Shown here one piece after another: positions 2,351 to 60,070 of a stretch of DNA of 64,000 bases; positions within the stretch are counted from its first letter, which is position 1; each line of letters opens with the position of its first letter. The DNA lies in assembly GCA_040376695.1 (NCBI GenBank), contig JBEIQD010000001.1, positions 217,029-281,028 of the forward strand, given 5' to 3'. The translations under genes and the position numbers were made by a program. The DNA is from Candidatus Nomurabacteria bacterium. GTDB lineage: Bacteria; Patescibacteriota; Minisyncoccia; Phycocordibacterales; UBA5272. Under the pieces are notes generated by a model. The model was given only the letters and a program-made list of their open reading frames with translations. It ran no database searches and was not told the origin of the DNA.

Positions 2351-5300
2351 TTACTTACCTTCTTGCTTTCCTCGGAGCCCTGTTCCGGCTGGGATAAGTC
2401 GTCCAATGATAACGTTTTCCTTAAGTCCTCGTAGCTGATCCATTTGTCCACGAGTAGACGCTGTGATAAGCACACGAGTAGTGTTCTGGAATGATGCTGA
2501 AGAGAGCCATGAGTCAGTAGAGAGAGCAACGTCTGTGATACCAAGTACCAAACTACGCCCCTTCGCTTCTGTCTTTCCTTCTTCCTTCATACGAGCATTC
2601 TCATAACGGAATGTTGAGATTTCAACCACATCAGACTGCGTAAAGCGAGTGTCTCCTGGGTTTGTAATCTTAACGCGTCCAAACATCTGCTTGATGATAA
2701 CTTCAACGTGCTTACGAGTGATCGCAGCTCCTTGTAGTTCATACACCTTGTTGATTTCAGAAACGATGTACTCTGCGGCAACGTCCTTACCAGCGTATGT
2801 GAAGAGTTCGTCAATATCAGCAGAACCATCAGTCATCATCTGACCTTTTTCTACTACATCTCCAACCTTCACAATTACCTGACGGCGATATGGCACAGTG
2901 TATTCCACCTGCTTACCACTCTTGTTACCCTTTGCTCCATCATCATCTCCGATAATAACAATAACCTTTTCTTTCCCTTCATCACGGATACCCATGATTT
3001 CACCTGCTTCGTGAGCGATGATAGCTGGGTTCTTTGGTGCACGTCGTTCGAAGATTTCTTCAACACGAGGAAGACCTTGTGTGATGTCGACTCCCGAAAC
3101 TCCTCCGGCGTGGAATGTACGCATAGTAAGCTGTGTTCCTGGTTCACCGATGGCTTGCGCAGCAACGATACCAACTGCTTCTCCAAGGTCTACCTTCTTG
3201 TTACGTCCCATGTCTAGTCCGTAACACTTCTGACAGATACCATGTAGTGACTGACAAGCAAGTGGTGAGAATACATTTGCTTCCTCCACTCCTGCGTTTT
3301 CAATTACAAGTGCATCGTCCTTGTTAACAAGGTGATTCTTCTTGTAAAGAACTTTACCGTCTACAACAATATCTTCAGCGAGTACACGTCCACGAACGTT
3401 CTTTGAAATTGGAACTTCGATACCGAGCGCGTTTTCCTTTCGGATTGTCTTACTCTCTTTTGTCCCACAATCAATTTCTGTAATGATCGCGTCCTGAGCC
3501 ACATCCACCAAACGACGAGTAAGGTATCCGGCCTGCGCTGTTTTAAGAGCGGTGTCAGAGTTACCCTTACGAGCTCCGTAGGTAGTAATGAAGTACTCTA
3601 GTGGTGTCAAACCTTCCTTGTATGATGAGATAACTGGGAAGTCGATGTTACGCCCTGAGTTGTTCACGATGATACCCTTCATACCTGACATCTGAATAAC
3701 CTGAGCGATAGAACCTCGGGCACCAGACGTAATAAGGTCATACACTGATCCATGCTTTTCGAAAGACTCTGGAACAAGCTTTTCAATTCTTGAACGAATT
3801 GCCTGCCATACTTCGATAGTCTTTGAGTAACGCTCTTCAGATGATAGAAGACCTTCTTCGTAGTCAGCTTCAACACGTGCTGCGTTATCCCAACCTTCAG
3901 CAATAAGAGCTGGCTTTTCCTTTGGAACCTTAACAGCATCAATATTCCATGTTGTTCCTGAAATAGTTGCATACTTGTAACCGAATGCTTTAATCTTGTC
4001 GATTACAGATGGTGCAGTCTCAAGACCATACGTAAGAATAACTTGATCAATAATAAGGTTCATCTTCTTCACAGCTACTTCATCATTCATGTATGGGAAG
4101 TCAGACGGGAATACAGAGTTAAAGAGAAGACGTCCAATTGTTGTTTCAAATGGCTTACCTTCAAACTGTGCATACTTTGCTTTTTCAGTTGAAGCCATCA
4201 CCCACACCTTTGCGCGGAATGATACAACACCGAAGTCATACGCTGTGATTGCTTCGTTTGGAGAAGCGAAGTACTTACCTTCACCCTTCTCTCCTTCAAT
4301 CATCTTTGTCATCCAGTACACACCAAGCACCATATCCATTCGAGGGTTAACGATTGAGTCTCCAGATCCAGGGCGGAGTAGGTTTCGGTTCGCCGCCATA
4401 AGCGTACGAGCTTCTTCCTGCGCTGCTACTGAAAGTGGAAGGTGAACGGCCATCTGGTCACCGTCGAAGTCAGCGTTAAAGGCCTGACATACAAGCGGGT
4501 GAAGCTGAATAGCATTACCTTCAATAAGACGAGGGTTGAACGCCTGAATACCAAGTCTGTGAAGTGTAGGAGCGCGGTTCAAGAGTACGTACTTTCCAGC
4601 AATACACTCTTCAAGAATTGCCCACACTTCTGGGATACTGTCTTCGATCAACTTATTCGCACCACGAATGTTGAACGCAAGTTCTCGTTCGAGAAGCTTT
4701 GAGATAACGAATGGCTTGAAGAGTTCAAGTGCCATGTGCTTTGGAAGTCCACACTCATTTAACTGAAGTGAAGGACCAACCACAATAACTGAACGAGCTG
4801 AATAGTCCACACGCTTTCCAAGAAGATTTCCGCGGAGAAGACCTTGCTTACCCTTAAGGTTATCAGAAAGTGACTTAAGCTGACGCTTCTGTGACTGACT
4901 CATAACAGCATCCTGTCCATGACGAGCTGAGTTGTCGATAAGAGCATCGATAGCTTCCTGGAGAATACGCTTTTCGTTACGCAAAATAACATCAGGCGCT
5001 CCAATTTCCATCAACTTCTTAAGACGGTTGTTACGGTTGATTACACGACGGTAAAGGTCGTTCACATCAGATGCCGCGTAGCGTCCTCCTTCAAGAGCAA
5101 CCATAGGACGAATCCCTGGAGGAATAACTGGAATAACTGTCATGAACATCCATTCTGGACGAATGCCAGCGTTCTTAAACGCACGAACAAGAGAAAGTCT
5201 CTTTTCCGCTTTTTCACGCTCAAGCGCACCAGCTTTTTCAAGGCGAAGCACAATAGCAGCTTCGAGCTCTGAAAGATCAATTGTCTTAAAGATTTCGTAG

Positions 5301-42269: not shown

Positions 42270-42649
42270 ATAAATTAGCTTTTAGTGTGATTAATGTGAT
42301 TTGTGCCTCCTGACTGATATCGTACCAAATAAACAGAAGTAAAGTCAAGTATTTGTGCAATAACTTCTATGTGTTTTATAAAACTGTTATTTATCAAGTA
42401 CTTTATGATAGTTATCCACACAGAAATTACTGATTAGAAATGGAATATAATACCTATTAGGCCATTGGTCGAATGCAGAATATGCAAACCTTCTAGCCTT
42501 ATGGTAAAAGCGCGTTGGGATTATGAAAATCTTAACCAGGAGCAGGTCTTTAGAGCATCGGAGCGCGTAGAAGAACATAGCGTAAAAATACCCAGCAATG
42601 AAGCTGGATATTTTAGGACAGTGAGTCGTACCGATACCTAATTATTGTG

Positions 42650-42736
42650 CGGAGAATGTGAGATTCGAACTCACGGACCTAATAAAAGGTCGACGGTTTA
42701 GTAAACCGTTGGTTTAAACCACTCACCCAATTCTCC
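42650..42736 (-). tRNA. Type-II (long variable arm) Ser-like tRNA whose anticodon reads ACT under the canonical fold (unusual)
   Basis: Minus-strand sequence ggagaat...acggt-ttactaa-accgt...gtgag-ttcgaat-ctcac-attctcc-g: 7-bp acceptor, long variable arm, discriminator G (Ser identity), anticodon loop TTACTAA. Confidence 0.6.
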
Positions 42737-44089: not shown

Positions 44090-44626
44090 TTAATCCATAT
44101 CAGTCTCAATTTTTTTCATGATAGCGAGCACTTCGTCTGGATACGAAGGAAGCACGGTACCGTTATAGTAGTGTAGCTTCTCTCGTGTAGTGTTTCCGGC
44201 ATAGTAACGCGCAGTCTTAGGGTTTCCACCTCCAAGGTTTTTACCGAGCGCTTCAATAGCCTGTTCGTAACTTGAAAAGTTACTTAGCTTACAAGATCCC
44301 CAACCGAATGGGTTATATCCACAAGCTGCTTTACCCCCAGATGATTCGCGAATTCCGATTGCAGGAAGAAGTCTCCAATCAAGACCGTACTTTTCAGCCA
44401 CAAGAACGAATGTCATTCCTGTACCGTGAAGGGGCATTGAACGCTCCTTAAAGTATGTATTAATTGCATCTGCCTTCTGCTGTCGTAAATCTTCAACCGA
44501 TATTTCTACCTTTGTTACAGGTGTCGTATCGAGTGAGCCAATATGTGAAGCTAGTGAGACACTCGGGATGGCCATAAATGGAACAAACGCGAGAATCTGG
44601 CTAACCTTATAAATGTTTTTGATCAT
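44090..44626 (-). CDS. Secreted GH73-like (N-acetylglucosaminidase family) peptidoglycan hydrolase candidate
   Basis: Signal-peptide-like start MIKNIYKVSQILAFVPFMAIPSVSLA. IGIRESSGGKAACGYNPFGWG resembles the glucosaminidase catalytic E-S..G...N.FG block. Start moved to 44626 because the ORF-track N-terminus runs into the dispersed repeat. Confidence 0.45.
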   Translation of the reverse strand: MIKNIYKVSQILAFVPFMAIPSVSLASHIGSLDTTPVTKVEISVEDLRQQKADAINTYFKERSMPLHGTGMTFVLVAEKYGLDWRLLPAIGIRESSGGKAACGYNPFGWGSCKLSNFSSYEQAIEALGKNLGGGNPKTARYYAGNTTREKLHYYNGTVLPSYPDEVLAIMKKIETDMD

Positions 44627-44633
44627 AATTTCG

Positions 44634-44752
44634 GCAGTTGTGCTCTGCCAACAGTACGTGGTCTGGAAAAAGAAGTGGGTAAAAATAAATACCAAGCAAA
44701 TATTTACTAATAAAAGACTATATTTACTCGGTATTGACTACTTCACTCTTAT
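44634..44752. repeat. Copy A of an about 115-bp dispersed intergenic repeat (copy B at 54772..54880, roughly 80% identity, same orientation)
   Basis: Both start gcagttgtgctctgccaaca and end actacttcactcttat, with internal ...ccaagcaaatattta(c/t)taataaa... conserved. Confidence 0.7.
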
Positions 44753-44857
44753 GTTGCAATTGTAGCATACCTGAAACGACTTGTCAAGTAAAATACAACG
44801 ATTTTGCCCTATTTGTCAAAAAATAGTCTCTAAAAAGCCTTATTCTATAAGGATTTC

Positions 44858-47368: not shown

Positions 47369-49924
47369 TTACTTTGCAGCCATCAATTGCTGATGCTCTT
47401 CTGTGTTTAATTCACCACATTTCTTCCACTTCTTTCCCGATCCACACGGACATTCATCATTACGTCCAATCTTTTCTTTTGTAGTACTTGCGTCAACTCC
47501 TCCTTGATTAGGAATAACTGGTACGAAGTTCTGAGCTGCAGCTGCCTGTGCCTGCTGCTGTGCGAAAAATCCGTCTAGATTTTCTATAAAGAGGACGAGC
47601 TCTCCTCGAAGTGTTGCTTCGAGATTCTTGAAAGCTCGAAGGCCTTCTTTCTTGTATTCAACAAGCGGATCTCGTTGTCCGTATGCACGAAGGTTCACAG
47701 AACTACGAAGATGTTCCATAGAATCCAAATGTTCCATCCACAATGTATCAATAATCTGGAGCATCATAACACGCACGATATGGTGCACAGCTTCTTTCGA
47801 ATACTTTTCTTCCTTAGCTTTAATAGTGTCAGCAAGTTCTGGTTTTTCTGCAACAAGTTCTGCAAAGATTTCTTCAACAATTCCCTCATCACCATAGAGA
47901 ATCTTGCGACGCTTACTATAAATACTTGTACGCTGGTGGTTTAACACATCGTCATACTGAAGTGTGTGCTTTCGAGTATCAAAGTGGAATCCTTCAATCT
48001 TTTCCTGAGCTCCTTCAAGGGCGCGAGATACAAGCTTTGAAGCAACAGGCTCATCTTCTGGAATACCGAAACGTCCCATCATGTTTTTAATGTTTGATGA
48101 ACCGAACACACGCATCAAATCATCTTCGAGTGACACAAAGAACTGTGTTTCTCCAACATCCCCCTGACGTCCTGAGCGACCACGAAGCTGATTGTCGATA
48201 CGACGAGCTTCATGACGTTCTGTACCAATAACGTACAAACCTCCGTACGAAAGCACATCTTCTCGTTCTGAATCTGTAGCTGATGGACCTCCCAACTTGA
48301 TGTCCACTCCACGACCCGCCATGTTTGTAGCAATAGTTACTGCACCTTTCTTTCCGGCTTCTGCAACAATTTCTCCTTCCTTCTCATGATTCTTCGCATT
48401 AAGAACAGCATGTGGCACACCTGCACGCTTAAGGTATTCTGAAATTTCTTCGTTCTTTTCAATTGAAATGGTACCAATAAGAACAGGCTGCCCTTTTTCG
48501 TGAAGTTCCTTCACCTTTTTAGTGAGTGCTTGCCACTTACCTTTTTCTGTTTGGAAAATATAATCCTCATGATCCTTACGTCTAATTTCGTTATGAGTTG
48601 GGACAGGTGTAACAACAAGACCATACACCTTATAGAATTCTTCCTTTGAAGTTTCTGCTGTTCCTGTCATTCCTGCAAGCTTTTCATAGAAACGGAAATA
48701 GTTCTGGAATGTGATGGAAGCAAGTGTACGTGACTCTTGTTCAATCTTTACTCCTTCTTTTGCTTCCACTGCCTGATGAAGACCATCTGACCAACGACGT
48801 CCTGGTTGCATGCGACCAGTGAACTCATCCACAATAACAACAGCACCATCACGTACTACGTATTCACGTTCACGAAGAAAGAGTGCTTTTGCTTTAACAG
48901 CTGTTTCTAGGTGGTGCACCTGCTTTACTCCTTCTATAGAGTAAATGTTTCCAATACCGAGTGCGCTTTCTGCTTTTGTGATACCCGCTTCTGTTAAAGA
49001 AATAGCTCGCTGCTTTTCATCTACCGTATAGTCGTCTCCTTCGATAAGATCATTAGCAATGTGTGAAAACTTTTTGTATAAATCACTTGATTCCTGAGCT
49101 GGCGCAGAAATAATGAGTGGTGTACGTGCTTCATCGATAAGGATTGAGTCGATTTCATCCACAATCGCATAATGGTGAGTGTGCTGTGCAATAGCTTCTT
49201 TACTATACCCAATATTGTCACGAAGGTAATCGAACCCAAATTCGTTGTTTGTTCCGTATGTAATGTCTGCCAAGTACGCTTCCTGACGATTACAACTCTT
49301 AAGGAAATCATATACCACTTTGTATGAACCAACTTCATCACGAATAGCGTCTTCTTCTGTTTGAACTTTCGCACTTGAGTCATACATGAATGATGTCTGG
49401 TGGTTGATTACTGAAACAGAAAGACCGAGCGCGTCATATACCTGCCCCATCCACACTGCATCACGACGTGAAAGATAATCATTCACAGTAACAATGTGCA
49501 CACCACGTCCTGTGAGTGCATTCAAATACGCAGGAAGTGTTGCAACAAGGGTTTTACCTTCTCCTGTTCTCATTTCTGCAATGTGTCCACGGTGAAGAAG
49601 CATTCCTCCTATAACCTGTACACGATAGTGCATCATATGGAGCGTTCTTCGAGCACTTTCACGCACAAGAGCAAATGCTTCAGGAAGAACTTCATCAAGT
49701 ACTTTCTTTTCAACACGCTTTAGTTCGTCACCCTTGAGACCAACAAGCTCTTTCATAACGCGAGCCTTAAGAGCAAGACCTCTATTCTTAAGAAGCTCAT
49801 CAGTGAGTCCTTTTAATTCTTCTTCGTACGAAAATACCTTGTCAGCAACAGGTTGGAGAGATTTTATAAGCTTTTTTGACTCGTCTGGGAAAATAGACGC
49901 AATTCCTTTAGAAAATAGAGACAT
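47369..49924 (-). CDS. secA: Preprotein translocase ATPase SecA
   Basis: 851 aa; DEAD-like motor motifs, preprotein cross-linking domain, and a C-terminal zinc-binding CPCGSGKKWKKC. Confidence 0.95.
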   Translation of the reverse strand: MSLFSKGIASIFPDESKKLIKSLQPVADKVFSYEEELKGLTDELLKNRGLALKARVMKELVGLKGDELKRVEKKVLDEVLPEAFALVRESARRTLHMMHYRVQVIGGMLLHRGHIAEMRTGEGKTLVATLPAYLNALTGRGVHIVTVNDYLSRRDAVWMGQVYDALGLSVSVINHQTSFMYDSSAKVQTEEDAIRDEVGSYKVVYDFLKSCNRQEAYLADITYGTNNEFGFDYLRDNIGYSKEAIAQHTHHYAIVDEIDSILIDEARTPLIISAPAQESSDLYKKFSHIANDLIEGDDYTVDEKQRAISLTEAGITKAESALGIGNIYSIEGVKQVHHLETAVKAKALFLREREYVVRDGAVVIVDEFTGRMQPGRRWSDGLHQAVEAKEGVKIEQESRTLASITFQNYFRFYEKLAGMTGTAETSKEEFYKVYGLVVTPVPTHNEIRRKDHEDYIFQTEKGKWQALTKKVKELHEKGQPVLIGTISIEKNEEISEYLKRAGVPHAVLNAKNHEKEGEIVAEAGKKGAVTIATNMAGRGVDIKLGGPSATDSEREDVLSYGGLYVIGTERHEARRIDNQLRGRSGRQGDVGETQFFVSLEDDLMRVFGSSNIKNMMGRFGIPEDEPVASKLVSRALEGAQEKIEGFHFDTRKHTLQYDDVLNHQRTSIYSKRRKILYGDEGIVEEIFAELVAEKPELADTIKAKEEKYSKEAVHHIVRVMMLQIIDTLWMEHLDSMEHLRSSVNLRAYGQRDPLVEYKKEGLRAFKNLEATLRGELVLFIENLDGFFAQQQAQAAAAQNFVPVIPNQGGVDASTTKEKIGRNDECPCGSGKKWKKCGELNTEEHQQLMAAK

Positions 49925-50300: not shown

Positions 50301-50584
50301 AAAATTATTTTTATTATACAAATAAGAGAGTGTTTTGTAATTTGTTTTATGATCACGACCATGATCACTACTCTCTGATGTAAGTATGACACTCATACAC
50401 ATACGCACAAGAGAAAAAAAATTTTTATGTGTGGATAACTCAAACTATTTTTTAAATAAAAAAAATTAAAAATAATTTTAAAAAATAAAAAGAAAATAGT
50501 TGTATCTTTGTACATGCAAACGCGAAGATTTTGCAAAATAAATACATATACCACTACCTACATAAAGCGCTTACATATCAAGAT

Positions 50585-50611
50585 AAAAGCGATGCTCATT
50601 GCATCGCTTTT
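50585..50611 (-). terminator. Intrinsic terminator after the SET-domain gene
   Basis: aaaagcgatgctcattgcatcgctttt. Confidence 0.55.
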
Positions 50612-50628
50612 ATCTTTACCCTTTATTA

Positions 50629-51228
50629 TTATTTATTTTTCTTCTCTGCTTCTTCTGTTTCAGTAACTCCTTTAGCGCCGTATGAATGTTTTTTAGCAAC
50701 ACATCTACATCCGTATGGTGAAATGTATTCTTTCACAAATTCTTCTCCGTAATCATACACAATCTCATCTCCCTCTTTAATATTTTTAATTGCTGATATA
50801 AACACTCTTCCTTTTTTAATATCACTTTCAGCATTCGCTGCTTCTTCACAAGCGTGATTACAATAACGAGCAATGTTCCACCTGACCTGTCCGTTGATTG
50901 TTTTATTACGATTAATTTCGAAAAGATACTGATTCGTTGTTATCTTATCTGATTCCTCTTTATTTAAAATAATTCCAATATACTCGATAATCATCTCCCC
51001 TTTCTTGATATTCTCTCCTGCAAAGAGTCCTAACCCTGCAAGCCCTCTTTTAACCTTAACCGCTTTAAAGTGATGATCTGGTAGATTCTTAGTATTTGGT
51101 GACACTTTTTCAATCACCTTCTTCTTTGATACAGATGCTTTCTTTAAAATCTTTGACTGTTTGTCTAACTTCTTTCCAACTGCTTTCGTAGCCGTCTTGC
51201 TTTTCTTTGTCATAATGCATGAAAGCAT
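50629..51228 (-). CDS. SET-domain protein-lysine methyltransferase with a Lys-rich N-terminal tail
   Basis: GLGLFAGENIKKGEMIIEYIG (GxG/SET-N), RYCNHACEEAN (NHxC motif), EIVYDYGEEF (ELxxDY motif), and a post-SET Cys pair CRCV. Confidence 0.85.
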   Translation of the reverse strand: MLSCIMTKKSKTATKAVGKKLDKQSKILKKASVSKKKVIEKVSPNTKNLPDHHFKAVKVKRGLAGLGLFAGENIKKGEMIIEYIGIILNKEESDKITTNQYLFEINRNKTINGQVRWNIARYCNHACEEAANAESDIKKGRVFISAIKNIKEGDEIVYDYGEEFVKEYISPYGCRCVAKKHSYGAKGVTETEEAEKKNK

Positions 51229-54666: not shown

Positions 54667-54673
54667 GCAATAT

Positions 54674-54701
54674 AAAATCCGCATCAAATGATGCGGATTT
54701 T
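54674..54701 (+). terminator. Intrinsic terminator after hsp20
   Basis: aaaatccgcatcaaatgatgcggatttt. Confidence 0.6.
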
Positions 54702-54771
54702 ATAATTACTTAGTCAGCTCCTTAATTATAAGAAGAATGACTACTAAGTGTAGTGTTTCCATATTTTTAAA

Positions 54772-54880
54772 GCAGTTGTGCTCTGCCAACAAGTGGTCTT
54801 GAAAAGAAGTTGGTGAAAACAAAAACCAAGCAAATATTATTAATAAAGGACTTACTCGGTCTCGACTACTTCACTCTTAT
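54772..54880. repeat. Copy B of the about 115-bp dispersed repeat
   Basis: See copy A (44634..44752). Confidence 0.7.
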
Positions 54881-55065
54881 AATTTAAATATAACAGACCA
54901 TATTGAAATTGCAATACGGCAGGAACCACTTCATTTTCGGTCACAAGAGCACTCGCTTCGCTCGAGAAGCCCTCGCGACCCCTATTCGATTCCTGCACGA
55001 AAGCCAAGCAGTTGGCTTTCTCTCGGACACATTTCAAAAAACCCTTTTAGGTCTTTTTTGAAATG

Positions 55066-58447: not shown

Positions 58448-59743
58448 TTACTGAGAAAGCTTCTTCTTTCTACTATAAAAGAACCCAAGTAGCAAGAGAT
58501 ACACCACACTTAAGACCCATGAACTTATAACAAGTGAAAACATACCCTGACCCATCTTAACTGCCGTAATGAGGGTTATAACACCAACGCTTGACGCAAT
58601 CAGGTTTGCATAAAAAAGACCCATAGTATCTTTCGATGCACTAAACGCACTCACAAAATATATATTGATAGCATACAGCGGCAAACTGAAAGCAAATAAT
58701 CCTGCCATACTAGAAATCTCTTTCCCTCGAGTAACATCTCCGTACAAAATACGCACGATAGGATCTTTACAAATAATAATTACTGCTGCAGCGAGAACTG
58801 ATATAGAAAAAATAGAAATAAGATTTATCTTAAGAATTTTTGTAAAATCCTTATGCTCACCCTGAGCGTGTTTATGTGCCAGCAAAGGAAGTGTTGCAGA
58901 AGCCGCACTCTGTACAACAACTTGTACGAATGCATCAATAATACGTTGTGCAAATAAATATACTGACAAGACACCAACCCCAATAGAGGTTGCCACAGCC
59001 ACAAAAATTAAATCTCGCACTCTTGAAACCACTGTAGAGAGCGATCGAGGTACAGCAACTCTCATATGAGACATAACATGTACCCAACTAAACATAGCTA
59101 GTGACAATTTCATTCTTGCTTCATATAAAGTATATGACTGTACAGCAAAACTAAGAATTGCCCCAACTACCACACCGCAAACAATTCCAATTACTCCGTA
59201 GCGTGGATACAGGAGCGGAATGGAAGCAATAATGGTAAGAGTGTAGATGAGTGGCGCAATACTGTATAAAACAAATCTATGTTTAATCTGAGCAAGTGAT
59301 GACACAAGCGCAGAAAGTCCGAGGAAAAGTGGCTGCACCATGAGAATAAGGGAACAGACAACAAAATAATGCCGCTGAAACTCATCAAATCCAGGAACAA
59401 TATATGGAGCGAGGAATGGCAAACATGCTGCCGCCACCAAAGAAAATGCTATTAAACTAAATCCAAAAAAGAAAAAGAGTGAGTTAAACTTCTTAGTAAT
59501 CTCCTCTTCATTTTCTTCTGCATGTTTAGTGATAAAAGGAACGACTGTTGCAGCCGATACTGCAGCAATTAATAAACCATAGACAAGATCAGGGATTCTA
59601 AACGCTGCATTATATACATCAAGCATTGGACCCACTCCTACAACTTGTGCAAGAAGACGGTCTCGAAAAATACCTAAGATAAGTGAGACTACACCGAAAA
59701 AAGCAAGAATTGCAGAGTTTCTAAGAATCATACGATATACCAA
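58448..59743 (-). CDS. murJ: Lipid II flippase MurJ/MviN family (short, 431 aa)
   Basis: N-terminus ...GIFRDRLLAQVVGVGPMLDVYNAAFRIPDLVYGLL... matches the MurJ Arg-rich N-terminal pattern; polytopic. Confidence 0.65.
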   Translation of the reverse strand: MVYRMILRNSAILAFFGVVSLILGIFRDRLLAQVVGVGPMLDVYNAAFRIPDLVYGLLIAAVSAATVVPFITKHAEENEEEITKKFNSLFFFFGFSLIAFSLVAAACLPFLAPYIVPGFDEFQRHYFVVCSLILMVQPLFLGLSALVSSLAQIKHRFVLYSIAPLIYTLTIIASIPLLYPRYGVIGIVCGVVVGAILSFAVQSYTLYEARMKLSLAMFSWVHVMSHMRVAVPRSLSTVVSRVRDLIFVAVATSIGVGVLSVYLFAQRIIDAFVQVVVQSAASATLPLLAHKHAQGEHKDFTKILKINLISIFSISVLAAAVIIICKDPIVRILYGDVTRGKEISSMAGLFAFSLPLYAINIYFVSAFSASKDTMGLFYANLIASSVGVITLITAVKMGQGMFSLVISSWVLSVVYLLLLGFFYSRKKKLSQ

Positions 59744-59756
59744 TTATACCATGAGA

Positions 59757-59787
59757 AAACACCGCCCTTGTGGGACGGTGTTTTCAT
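59757..59787 (-). terminator. Intrinsic terminator directly after the rnpB 3' end
   Basis: Minus strand aaaacaccgtcccacaagggcggtgttttc. Confidence 0.55.
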
Positions 59788-59789
59788 GT

Positions 59790-60070
59790 ATTCTTTGTCT
59801 ATAAGCCGAATTCTGTGTTTGTGTAGACATGTATCTAGGATGATAGTCACCCATCACCTCAAGCGACGCTCCTTTCAATTGCTCAAAAGGCACGGTCTTG
59901 CACACACGTATGTATTTAGCCGTTTCAGCCGAACTAAATCGGATCGTTTCTGTTCGCAACACGGTGGTCACCCACGACGGGCATTACCCGCTACGCTTAT
60001 CATGTAAACATGATGATGTGTTCGGACTTTCCTCACGATATTGCTATCGCGCGTCTACCCAACAAAGAAC
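59790..60070 (-). ncRNA. rnpB: RNase P RNA (M1 RNA), compact about 280-nt form; not in the ORF track
   Basis: Minus strand carries the universal 5' block cgtGAGGAAAGTCCGaac (plus 60020..60037) and the 3' block ACAGAAttCGGCTTAtag (plus 59799..59816). P1 pairing gttctttgt/acaaagaa (60062..60070 vs 59791..59798). Internal GGGTAATGCC and TGAAAGGAGCG blocks. An upstream TATACA-18-TAGTAT promoter-like sequence and a terminator hairpin right after. Confidence 0.78.

Follow-up and report, generated by a model that had tools for sequence, protein, structure and literature searches.

A candidate structured 5′ leader RNA before a putative peptidoglycan hydrolase gene in Paceibacteria, and its orphan copy in one strain

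Introduction

Operator hairpins by start codons are known from phage coat-protein operators and as boxB-type GNRA-like pentaloops. The 5′ untranslated region (UTR) of Escherichia coli ompA, the mRNA of an abundant envelope protein, is a stabilizer of ~130 nucleotides (nt) in which a 5′ hairpin is followed by a single-stranded segment and by another hairpin, which directly precedes the ribosome-binding region; this leader depends on Shine-Dalgarno (SD), RNase E, and Hfq biology. The c-di-AMP riboswitch (ydaO-yuaA) is a large pseudo-symmetric (pseudo-twofold) multi-helix aptamer. The lysM-TM7, lysM-Actino, lysM-Prevotella, and M23 motifs are orphan candidate cis-regulatory RNAs that were not seen to bind c-di-AMP (Weinberg et al. 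2017, PMC5737381). Here we analyze a dispersed repeat found as two copies, A and B, in a 64-kb stretch of the genome of a Candidatus Nomurabacteria bacterium (contig JBEIQD010000001.1; this whole stretch of 64,000 nt is called the window below, and all positions are counted from its first base). Copy A stands directly before a gene for a putative peptidoglycan hydrolase.

The Patescibacteria, which also go by the name of candidate phyla radiation (CPR), are ultrasmall, mostly uncultured, and probably host-dependent, and they possess few regulators; to our knowledge, almost nothing is known about their post-transcriptional regulation. We argue that the repeat is very probably a structured cis-acting 5′ leader RNA, encoded on the minus strand. 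The original prediction, which was made from the letters of the window alone, had treated the repeat as strandless intergenic DNA and offered a small RNA family, a relic of a mobile element, or a conserved binding element as candidates. Its RNA option has stood; what we revise here is the strand, the limits of the unit, and its biological setting.

Results

The repeat coincides with a predicted 5′ UTR

Copies A (44634-44752) and B (54772-54880) lie in the same orientation, just as first described. Read on the plus strand, the copies agree in every base of their first 20 nt (GCAGTTGTGCTCTGCCAACA) and of their last 17 nt (GACTACTTCACTCTTAT), and both sequences are found at no other place in the window; dinucleotide shuffles give 0.00 expected matches for the 20-mer. 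In a MAFFT alignment the two copies are identical in 82% of columns with gaps counted, close to the rough 80% first estimated: 100 of the 109 aligned bases agree, and four indels make up ~10 nt in total. The flanks are unrelated, as had been claimed, apart from promoter consensus. We rejected homology between the two promoter regions, whose 17/36 identical positions are accounted for by the common consensus.

A sigma-70 promoter had been sought within the repeat and judged absent. We agree that there is none of note inside; the promoters sit immediately upstream, on the minus strand (Table 1). The -10 box of either copy ends exactly 6 nt upstream of where the repeat begins on this strand. The repeat therefore opens at the predicted +1, and the predicted transcript starts with it, 5′-AUAAGAGUGAAG.... 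The same promoter geometry (TTGAC-N17-TGnTAnAAT-N6) precedes the leader in ~45 species. Before copy A two promoters stand in tandem (44759-44819, minus strand), the -10 box of the upstream promoter abutting the -35 box of the downstream one, and this order is conserved across species (orthologous positions in loci L004-L044).

At the other end, an alignment anchored on start codons extends the similarity between A and B by a few bases, to the ATG (AAATTATG versus AAAATATG), and seven of the final 8 nt before the ATG are identical. Since the repeat starts at the predicted +1 and ends at the ATG, the repeated unit would be a complete 5′ UTR. What was first described as intergenic DNA of no particular strand is, on this evidence, the minus-strand 5′ UTR of the hydrolase gene in the case of copy A.

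Table 1. Features of the two copies and of their surroundings in the window
Feature	Position	Strand	Details
Upstream promoter of the tandem pair before leader A	44790..44819	-	TTGACA-18-TATTTT; promoter scan; tandem layout kept in other species
Proximal promoter, leader A	44759..44787	-	TTGACA-17-TGnTACAAT; 11/12 matches, extended -10
Copy A, predicted complete 5′ untranslated leader of the hydrolase mRNA	44627..44752	-	Predicted +1 44752 to base before AUG; covariance-model match 39.8 bits
Copy A P1, long hairpin	44670..44750	-	Folding and covariation (helices 1, 2)
Copy A single-stranded linker	44652..44669	-	Conserved CCAG at 44663-44666, YG-UU before P2; alignments
Copy A P2	44631..44651	-	UUGGCAG / CUGCCGA stem; RNAalifold and pair counts
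Putative hydrolase gene, 178 aa, predicted secreted, glucosaminidase-like	44090..44626	-	ATG 44624-44626
Copy B promoter	54887..54914	-	TTGCAA-16-TGnTATATT, TGn being the extended -10
Copy B, orphan copy of the leader	54763..54880	-	Predicted +1 54880 to base before AUG; covariance-model match 18.8 bits, filters off
Copy B P1	54804..54876	-	Upper stem GAGACCGAGUAAGU (54850-54863) with AUAUUUGCUUGGUUUUU (54821-54837)
Copy B P2	54771..54787	-	GGCAG / CUGCU, loop AGCACAA (54776-54782), 8 nt before AUG
18-codon open reading frame after copy B	54706..54762	-	METLHLVVILLIIKELTK, hydrophobic; start ATG 54762-54760; candidate coding
Bidirectional intrinsic terminator shared with hsp20	54671..54704	-	Would end a ~210-nt copy-B transcript

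Covarying hairpins stand before one gene in about 50 species

The leader heads the hydrolase gene in about 50 species of Paceibacteria (Patescibacteria). We compared the 190 nt upstream of the gene in 75 related genome loci that carry the hydrolase and built a covariance model from 25 short-hairpin leaders. In the window plus the 75 loci (1.11 Mb), cmsearch with this model gives 48 matches, one per locus, every one of them ending at the hydrolase ATG. A pattern made up of the hairpin nearest the start codon (P2) plus the ATG occurs at ~50 hydrolase starts, with ~5 chance-like matches elsewhere, and reaches hydrolases that are only ~50% identical (Yonath- and Campbellbacteria-type records). Scanning metagenomes for the P2 20-mer that occurs most often gave six contigs, and the hydrolase follows in 6/6.

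The layout is shared by ~45 species: tandem promoters, a leader of 100-145 nt, a further 3-9 nt, and the AUG. The family leader can be written 5′-ACAAUAGUGAA..GUCAAUACC (variable hairpin) GGUAUUUUAUUUUUCACU...CCAG..N..YG-UU (stem) AGCGUAA (stem′). These RNAs, ~105-130 nt in length, would consist of a single-stranded 5′ tail, the long hairpin P1, a single-stranded linker, and P2, after which the start region is open and A-rich. The sequence of the tail is constant within species subgroups and different between them. In P1 a U-rich 3′ arm (GGUAUUUAUUUUU in copy A) pairs with a purine-rich 5′ arm, and the upper stem of copy A is a perfect helix of 16 bp (44720-44735 with 44688-44703). P2 has 5-7 bp; its stem varies freely, its loop AGCNNAA is invariant, and the AUG lies 3-9 nt downstream (in copy A the loop is AGCACAA, 44638-44644, and 4 nt separate the end of P2 from the AUG). 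A loop of the form AGCRNAA might adopt the fold of a GNRA-like pentaloop, with an A·A pair closing it. The linker motifs CCAG and YG-UU are near-invariant across the family; in one metagenomic orthologue (L087:1-142) the UUCCAG linker motif is replaced by UUUUCGGAGAGGUCUUGG, with P1 and P2 kept.

Both hairpins covary. RNAalifold recovers P2, with compensatory changes at 5/5 pairs. In the covariance alignment 85.2% of cells are paired, compared with 69.3% after shuffling and 44-57% in slid controls, and the cells changed on both sides number 150, compared with 45.6 in shuffles. The inner pairs of P2 occur as CG (20), UA (20), and GC (7); as GC (28) and AU (18); and as GC (30) and AU (17), and none is broken. 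Within P1, a sister strain (L001) departs from copy A at two pairs, one swapped from U-A to A-U and the other changed from A-U to G·U. The stem sequences of P1 are conserved beyond what pairing needs.

The original prediction had held that two copies and no more, with neither covariation nor a transcript, would suggest a chance remnant of segmental duplication. Because the covariation across species is strong, the repeat as a whole is not of that kind, and the suggestion of a small RNA family or conserved RNA element proves to be essentially right: about 50 species and two covarying hairpins.

The paired columns also point to a strand. In the family alignment they hold 82 G·U or U·G cells and only 12 A·C or C·A cells, an excess that places the RNA on the hydrolase (minus) strand. 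The folding z-score is -2.75 for the minus strand versus -1.62 for the plus strand. Judged by these pairing statistics, the functional strand of both copies is the minus strand.

With cmscan, Rfam 15 gave no match for the whole window at gathering threshold in the region of the copies, nor for both copies and one orthologue (L037) at E <= 10. Membership in the lysM-TM7, lysM-Actino, lysM-Prevotella, or M23 motifs was rejected (no Rfam model match), and so was identity with the c-di-AMP riboswitch (no Rfam match; only two hairpins are supported). Both copies and the orthologue searched match no Rfam model, and the element differs from the described RNAs in lineage, gene, and architecture; we therefore propose that it represents a new family of structured cis-regulatory leaders. 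On comparative sequence evidence, an uncatalogued structured leader family of Paceibacteria (Patescibacteria/CPR) is well supported.

The repeat had been called neither coding nor tRNA-derived, and we judge both statements to be correct. There is no conserved open reading frame (ORF) on either strand: the longest stop-free runs are of 16-43 codons, their frames are inconsistent, and they yield no conserved peptide. The lengths of indels in the leader alignments are not multiples of three. A 50-aa ORF on the plus strand (44613-44765) is spurious, and a 4-codon upstream ORF, read by eye from the sequences, occurs in a subgroup of species only.

A mobile element akin to miniature inverted-repeat transposable elements (MITEs), or a dispersed repeat of the repetitive extragenic palindrome (REP) type, would agree with two same-orientation copies in unrelated flanks, one of them next to a tRNA gene within variable DNA. 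We see, however, no terminal inverted repeats (GCAGTTGTG at one end is not repeated in inverted form by ATAAGAGTG at the other) and no target-site duplication. There are two copies in the 64-kb window and one per locus in 1.1 Mb, always with the same gene; the boundaries are the +1 and the start codon; and throughout a bacterial class the element occurs as orthologues in synteny with one gene. The MITE-like relic that was first entertained is thereby effectively refuted. The proximity to tRNA genes is incidental: The tRNA-Glu gene near copy A is syntenic, with an orientation that varies between species, and copy B lies in a strain-variable slot by tRNA-Arg.

P2 lies beside the start codon in SD-poor genomes

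Even a loose SD motif is found for only five to eight of the 52 window genes. Many have a TAnAAT-like -10 box 7-10 nt before the ATG (e.g., 47369-49924, secA; 58448-59731), and many of the mRNAs are probably leaderless or near-leaderless. The related loci are equally SD-poor, and a subgroup of Parcubacteria has been reported without the anti-SD motif (PMC9297842). In genomes that are SD-poor and largely leaderless, a structured leader of 120 nt is exceptional. Since SD motifs are scarcely used here, P2 cannot work by hiding one, and we rejected SD sequestration; an RRAG does occur at the stem-loop junction, ~17 nt from the AUG. The 3′ end of 16S rRNA, which we sought for a test of complementarity between leader and rRNA, was not found among the sequences compared.

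We propose that the leader would act in cis and post-transcriptionally, on both the translation of the hydrolase and the stability of its mRNA. P2 and the linker would be placed exactly where the 30S subunit must load in an organism without SD pairing. They might form an operator-like functional core, recognized by a trans-acting factor (a small molecule or a protein), and this recognition would gate initiation on the message of a potentially lethal wall hydrolase. P1 may protect the 5′ part of the mRNA or set its half-life. Control of translation through P2 by such a factor is a tentative suggestion, to which we give somewhat less than an even chance.

Several other readings bear on the same evidence. 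A true riboswitch, a constitutive stabilizer or positioning element, and, chiefly on account of copy B, a trans-acting or decoy RNA are rivals whose weight is comparable to that of the mechanism just proposed. The 3′ domain (CCAG...YG-UU plus P2) is possibly, though we lean against it, a specific receptor: either a small riboswitch of a new class for a cell-wall-related metabolite or a structure resembling an internal ribosome entry site (IRES) for ribosome docking and start selection in a lineage that has given up SD pairing. If so, the whole 5′ UTR would be a portable module, as the complete +1-to-AUG copy B behind another promoter would show.

A new riboswitch class, in which the linker and P2, perhaps docked on P1, bind a small molecule (for instance a second messenger, or a precursor or fragment of the cell wall) and switch translation without a protein, would make copy B an orphan riboswitch or a small RNA (sRNA). 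As in riboswitches generally, a covariation-backed structured domain (P1 and P2) carries invariant unpaired nucleotides (AGCNNAA, CCAG, and YG-UU). These persist across hydrolases only ~50% identical, the linkage is strictly to one functional gene class, and the conserved core is compact, its ~45 nt being comparable in size to small known riboswitches; reduced genomes also have few regulators. Both c-di-AMP riboswitches and the orphan lysM and M23 motifs, moreover, have cell-wall hydrolase genes as their classic targets (PMC5737381). A riboswitch is nevertheless rather unlikely in our view, given that we see no multi-stem junction, no supported pseudoknot, and no alternative terminator or start-codon-sequestering fold; a single gene family is associated, and the P1 stem sequence is conserved more than pairing demands.

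We also find it doubtful that the leader is simply a constitutive expression element, with P1 as a 5′ stabilizer and P2 as a structural insulator or a hairpin for positioning, by which the A-rich start stays open for SD-independent initiation, and with no sensing at all. The invariant AGCNNAA, CCAG, and YG-UU would be needless for a mere stabilizer or insulator, and most other genes here do without any leader. Strong tandem promoters before a highly conserved, presumably abundant secreted protein do fit such an element. So does the accessible start region (positions +4 to +15 are mostly unpaired, 0.73 in partition-function folding), as does the fact that we found no off-state fold; genomes independent of SD also need other means to define internal starts.

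Copy B is an orphan leader in a variable slot

Sequence comparison indicates that copy B reproduces the 5′ UTR in full, as an orphan present at strain level. Its identity with its own genome's copy A is 92% of its length, compared with <=82% with the leader of any other species, which makes it a paralogue from the same lineage. There are no substitutions in its first 17 nt or its last 21 nt; all nine substitutions, and all indels, lie in the middle. By our own arithmetic, the probability that nine substitutions would all miss these 38 terminal positions is ~0.02. In P1 of copy B, two kinds of change relative to copy A, U-A to G·U and A-U to G·U, leave the pairing intact. The conserved linker motif CCAG reads CAAG. 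Folded as a whole (216 nt), the copy-B RNA has a z-score of -7.16. No homologues of the 18-codon ORF that follows were found, and its 13-nt identity to the hydrolase coding sequence is at chance level (E 0.87); positions 54709-54748, within the stretch of this ORF, also fold as a hairpin of 13 or more bp.

The hsp20-to-tRNA interval that holds copy B (window 54667-55064) is a strain- and species-variable slot filled by unrelated cassettes, as seen in L004, L015, L023, L029, and L079-L081. Among contigs that encode an identical hsp20 protein (L078-L081), one (L078) is identical to the window. Two others (L080 and L081) share 97% nucleotide identity with the window across the tRNA-synthetase-to-hsp20 region, yet they are without copy B and have a 133-aa DUF6278/DUF3806-like gene in the slot. 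L079, 94.6% identical across that region, has another element there: L079 and L004 carry a GC-rich element of ~130 nt, L023 carries a secreted-protein gene, and L015 carries nothing. No B-like copy was found in the hsp20-tRNA interval of L004, L015, L023, and L029, nor anywhere in the 75 loci by nhmmer and the covariance model, and exact-protein look-ups gave only the same strain or strains without copy B.

We suggest that copy B would be a leader paralogue of the same genome that came to stand behind a different promoter in a strain-variable slot, producing a highly structured RNA of ~210 nt. This RNA might either extend the same control to the tiny ORF or titrate the same factor.

It is also possible, if on the unlikely side, that copy B is a functionless relic, the product of segmental duplication or recombination in a hypervariable slot, and that the repeat has no biology beyond copy A. 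The presence of copy B in one strain lineage only, among slots that elsewhere (L079, L080/L081, L004, L015, L023, and L029) hold unrelated cassettes, would be expected of a relic, as would an 18-codon ORF with no homologue and the CCAG-to-CAAG change. However, copies A and B diverge by 8% plus indels, more than the 3% that separates the strains across the tRNA-synthetase-to-hsp20 region, so that copy B is not brand new. Both of its ends are nevertheless intact, its promoter stands at the exact distance, its AUG is spaced as in the family, and its changes in P1 are compensatory; the improbable sparing of its terminal positions by substitution also speaks against mere decay.

An sRNA acting in trans seems quite improbable to us. 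It could consist of P1 and the U-tract, released by termination (~70 nt), or of the processed leader, with copy A as a 5′-UTR-derived source and copy B as a second sRNA gene or a decoy. Copy B duplicates the leader exactly and nothing of the gene, and it has its own promoter and terminator and a very stable fold. In addition, P1 with its U-run is terminator-like, and the single-stranded tail ahead of P1 has the subgroup-specific sequence noted above. In >50 species, however, the sole copy is locked to the hydrolase start at fixed P2-AUG spacing; copy B is absent from a sister strain that shares 97% identity over the tRNA-synthetase-to-hsp20 region, and none of the other species examined has it; and we found no target complementarity.

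The downstream gene and other features of the window

The N-terminus of the hydrolase ORF resembles a signal peptide. A match to the Glucosaminidase family PF01832 is weak (E 9e-4, below the cut-off), as is a match to the structure of a phage cell-wall hydrolase (8yxk, E 0.029). Among 798 homologues, several have a precomputed PF01832 match. We take the 178-aa product to be a secreted peptidoglycan hydrolase. The closest genome record to the window is JAHFMX010000002.1. On a GC-rich viral contig (L082, IMGVR_UViG_3300035167_000012), positions 2620-3357 encode a protein that is 55% identical to residues 56-173 of the hydrolase, as might be expected if the hydrolase had a lysin-type origin or function. 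The leader is absent before the homologue on this one contig, and we rejected a phage origin of the leader on that ground.

Between the 3′ end of tRNA-Arg and the copy-B promoter lies a GC-rich stretch (54917-55064, minus strand) with three hairpins (z -5.48) and no Rfam match. One hairpin of ~78 nt (54917-54994) is 95% conserved in a sister strain (L080, 2489-2566) despite different neighbors there, and its outer stem has tRNA T-arm-like sequence (GGTTCCTGCC / GCAGGAATCG). From its sequence, the stretch could be an att site or a tRNA remnant, or a small RNA.

Three further observations concern the window at large. ARAGORN finds a tRNA-Ser with the anticodon ACT at 42649-42736 (minus strand), beside a tRNA-Ser(GCT), and the pair is conserved in L004, L023, and L029; a serine tRNA with A34 is unusual. 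The class A RNase P RNA (59786-60070, minus strand) matches over 285 nt of a 367-position model and is of a reduced form. A SET-domain protein gene (50629-51228, minus strand; PF00856, E 1e-21) is present in this reduced bacterial genome.

Discussion

Overall, the best explanation of the data is a cis-acting leader RNA of the hydrolase gene with the mechanism proposed above, together with copy B as its paralogue, and we consider this combination probable on balance. A number of observations weigh against it. The transcription starts of A and B are predictions from promoter consensus. Partition-function folding revealed no mutually exclusive "off" fold; the unpaired probability of the AUG has a mean of 0.42 and ranges from 0.01 to 0.78, and consistent sequestration of the AUG was not seen across the folded leaders.

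Two further interactions, which would make the 3′ domain aptamer-like, are not supported. A helix within the linker between P1 and P2 (CAG...CNG) is 66% paired compared with 59% in shuffled sequences, and its best-register length is no better than shuffled. An H-type pseudoknot of NGUU with the loop AGCN′ could pair in 28 of 35 unique sequences, but this involves ~1-2 independent changes, with seven mismatches in distant species.

P1 followed by a U-run (UAUUUUU or UUUUAUUUUU) looks like the intrinsic terminators of this genome. The second-best match of the leader model in the window is a real intrinsic terminator, after the SET-domain gene (50561-50634, minus strand), which underlines the resemblance, and attenuation or a short sRNA may therefore be an alternative. 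When P1 was considered as a terminator or attenuator, we found that its U-tract pairs with an upstream purine tract, that short-hairpin species have weak stems, and that no antiterminator competing with P1 could be found. Finally, nothing convincingly coding follows copy B; control in cis accounts for this no better than does a relic or an RNA that acts in trans or as a decoy.

The RNA is deeply conserved and covariation-backed and stands before the gene of a putative secreted peptidoglycan hydrolase; an enzyme of this kind plausibly has a central part in division or in interacting with the cell walls of the host. The leader offers a handle on how ribosomes choose internal start codons in SD-poor, leader-poor genomes, and its size (~105-130 nt) suits direct biochemistry. 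Copy B would be a natural experiment on the leader as an autonomous module. The family adds a well-supported new RNA motif to a poorly understood phylum, so far with one associated gene.

The likeness to the ompA 5′ UTR is architectural only. Here there is no SD system, and the nucleotides of the loop and linker are invariant over deep divergence, which, unlike the situation in ompA, points to specific recognition. With operator hairpins P2 shares a short hairpin, a covarying stem, a fixed loop, and a position inside the ribosome footprint, although it does not contain the start codon and has no known cognate protein. The c-di-AMP riboswitch (ydaO-yuaA, RF00379) also controls cell-wall hydrolase genes from their 5′ UTRs, in Firmicutes and Actinobacteria (PMC5737381). 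The present element has two hairpins only and gives no covariance-model match.

The nearest parallels, along with the c-di-AMP riboswitch, are the lysM and M23 motifs. These small structured RNAs occur before genes for cell-wall-degrading enzymes, in what are predicted to be 5′ UTRs, and one of them is found in the CPR phylum TM7 (PMC5737381). Copy A and its ~50 orthologues share this position, with a promoter on one side and, on the other, the ATG of a gene for a glucosaminidase-like protein. They differ from those motifs in their hosts, which are Paceibacteria, in the downstream gene, which encodes a glucosaminidase-like protein of 178 aa and is neither lysM nor M23, and in the element itself, a long P1 hairpin joined to a P2 that presents its AGCNNAA loop beside the AUG.

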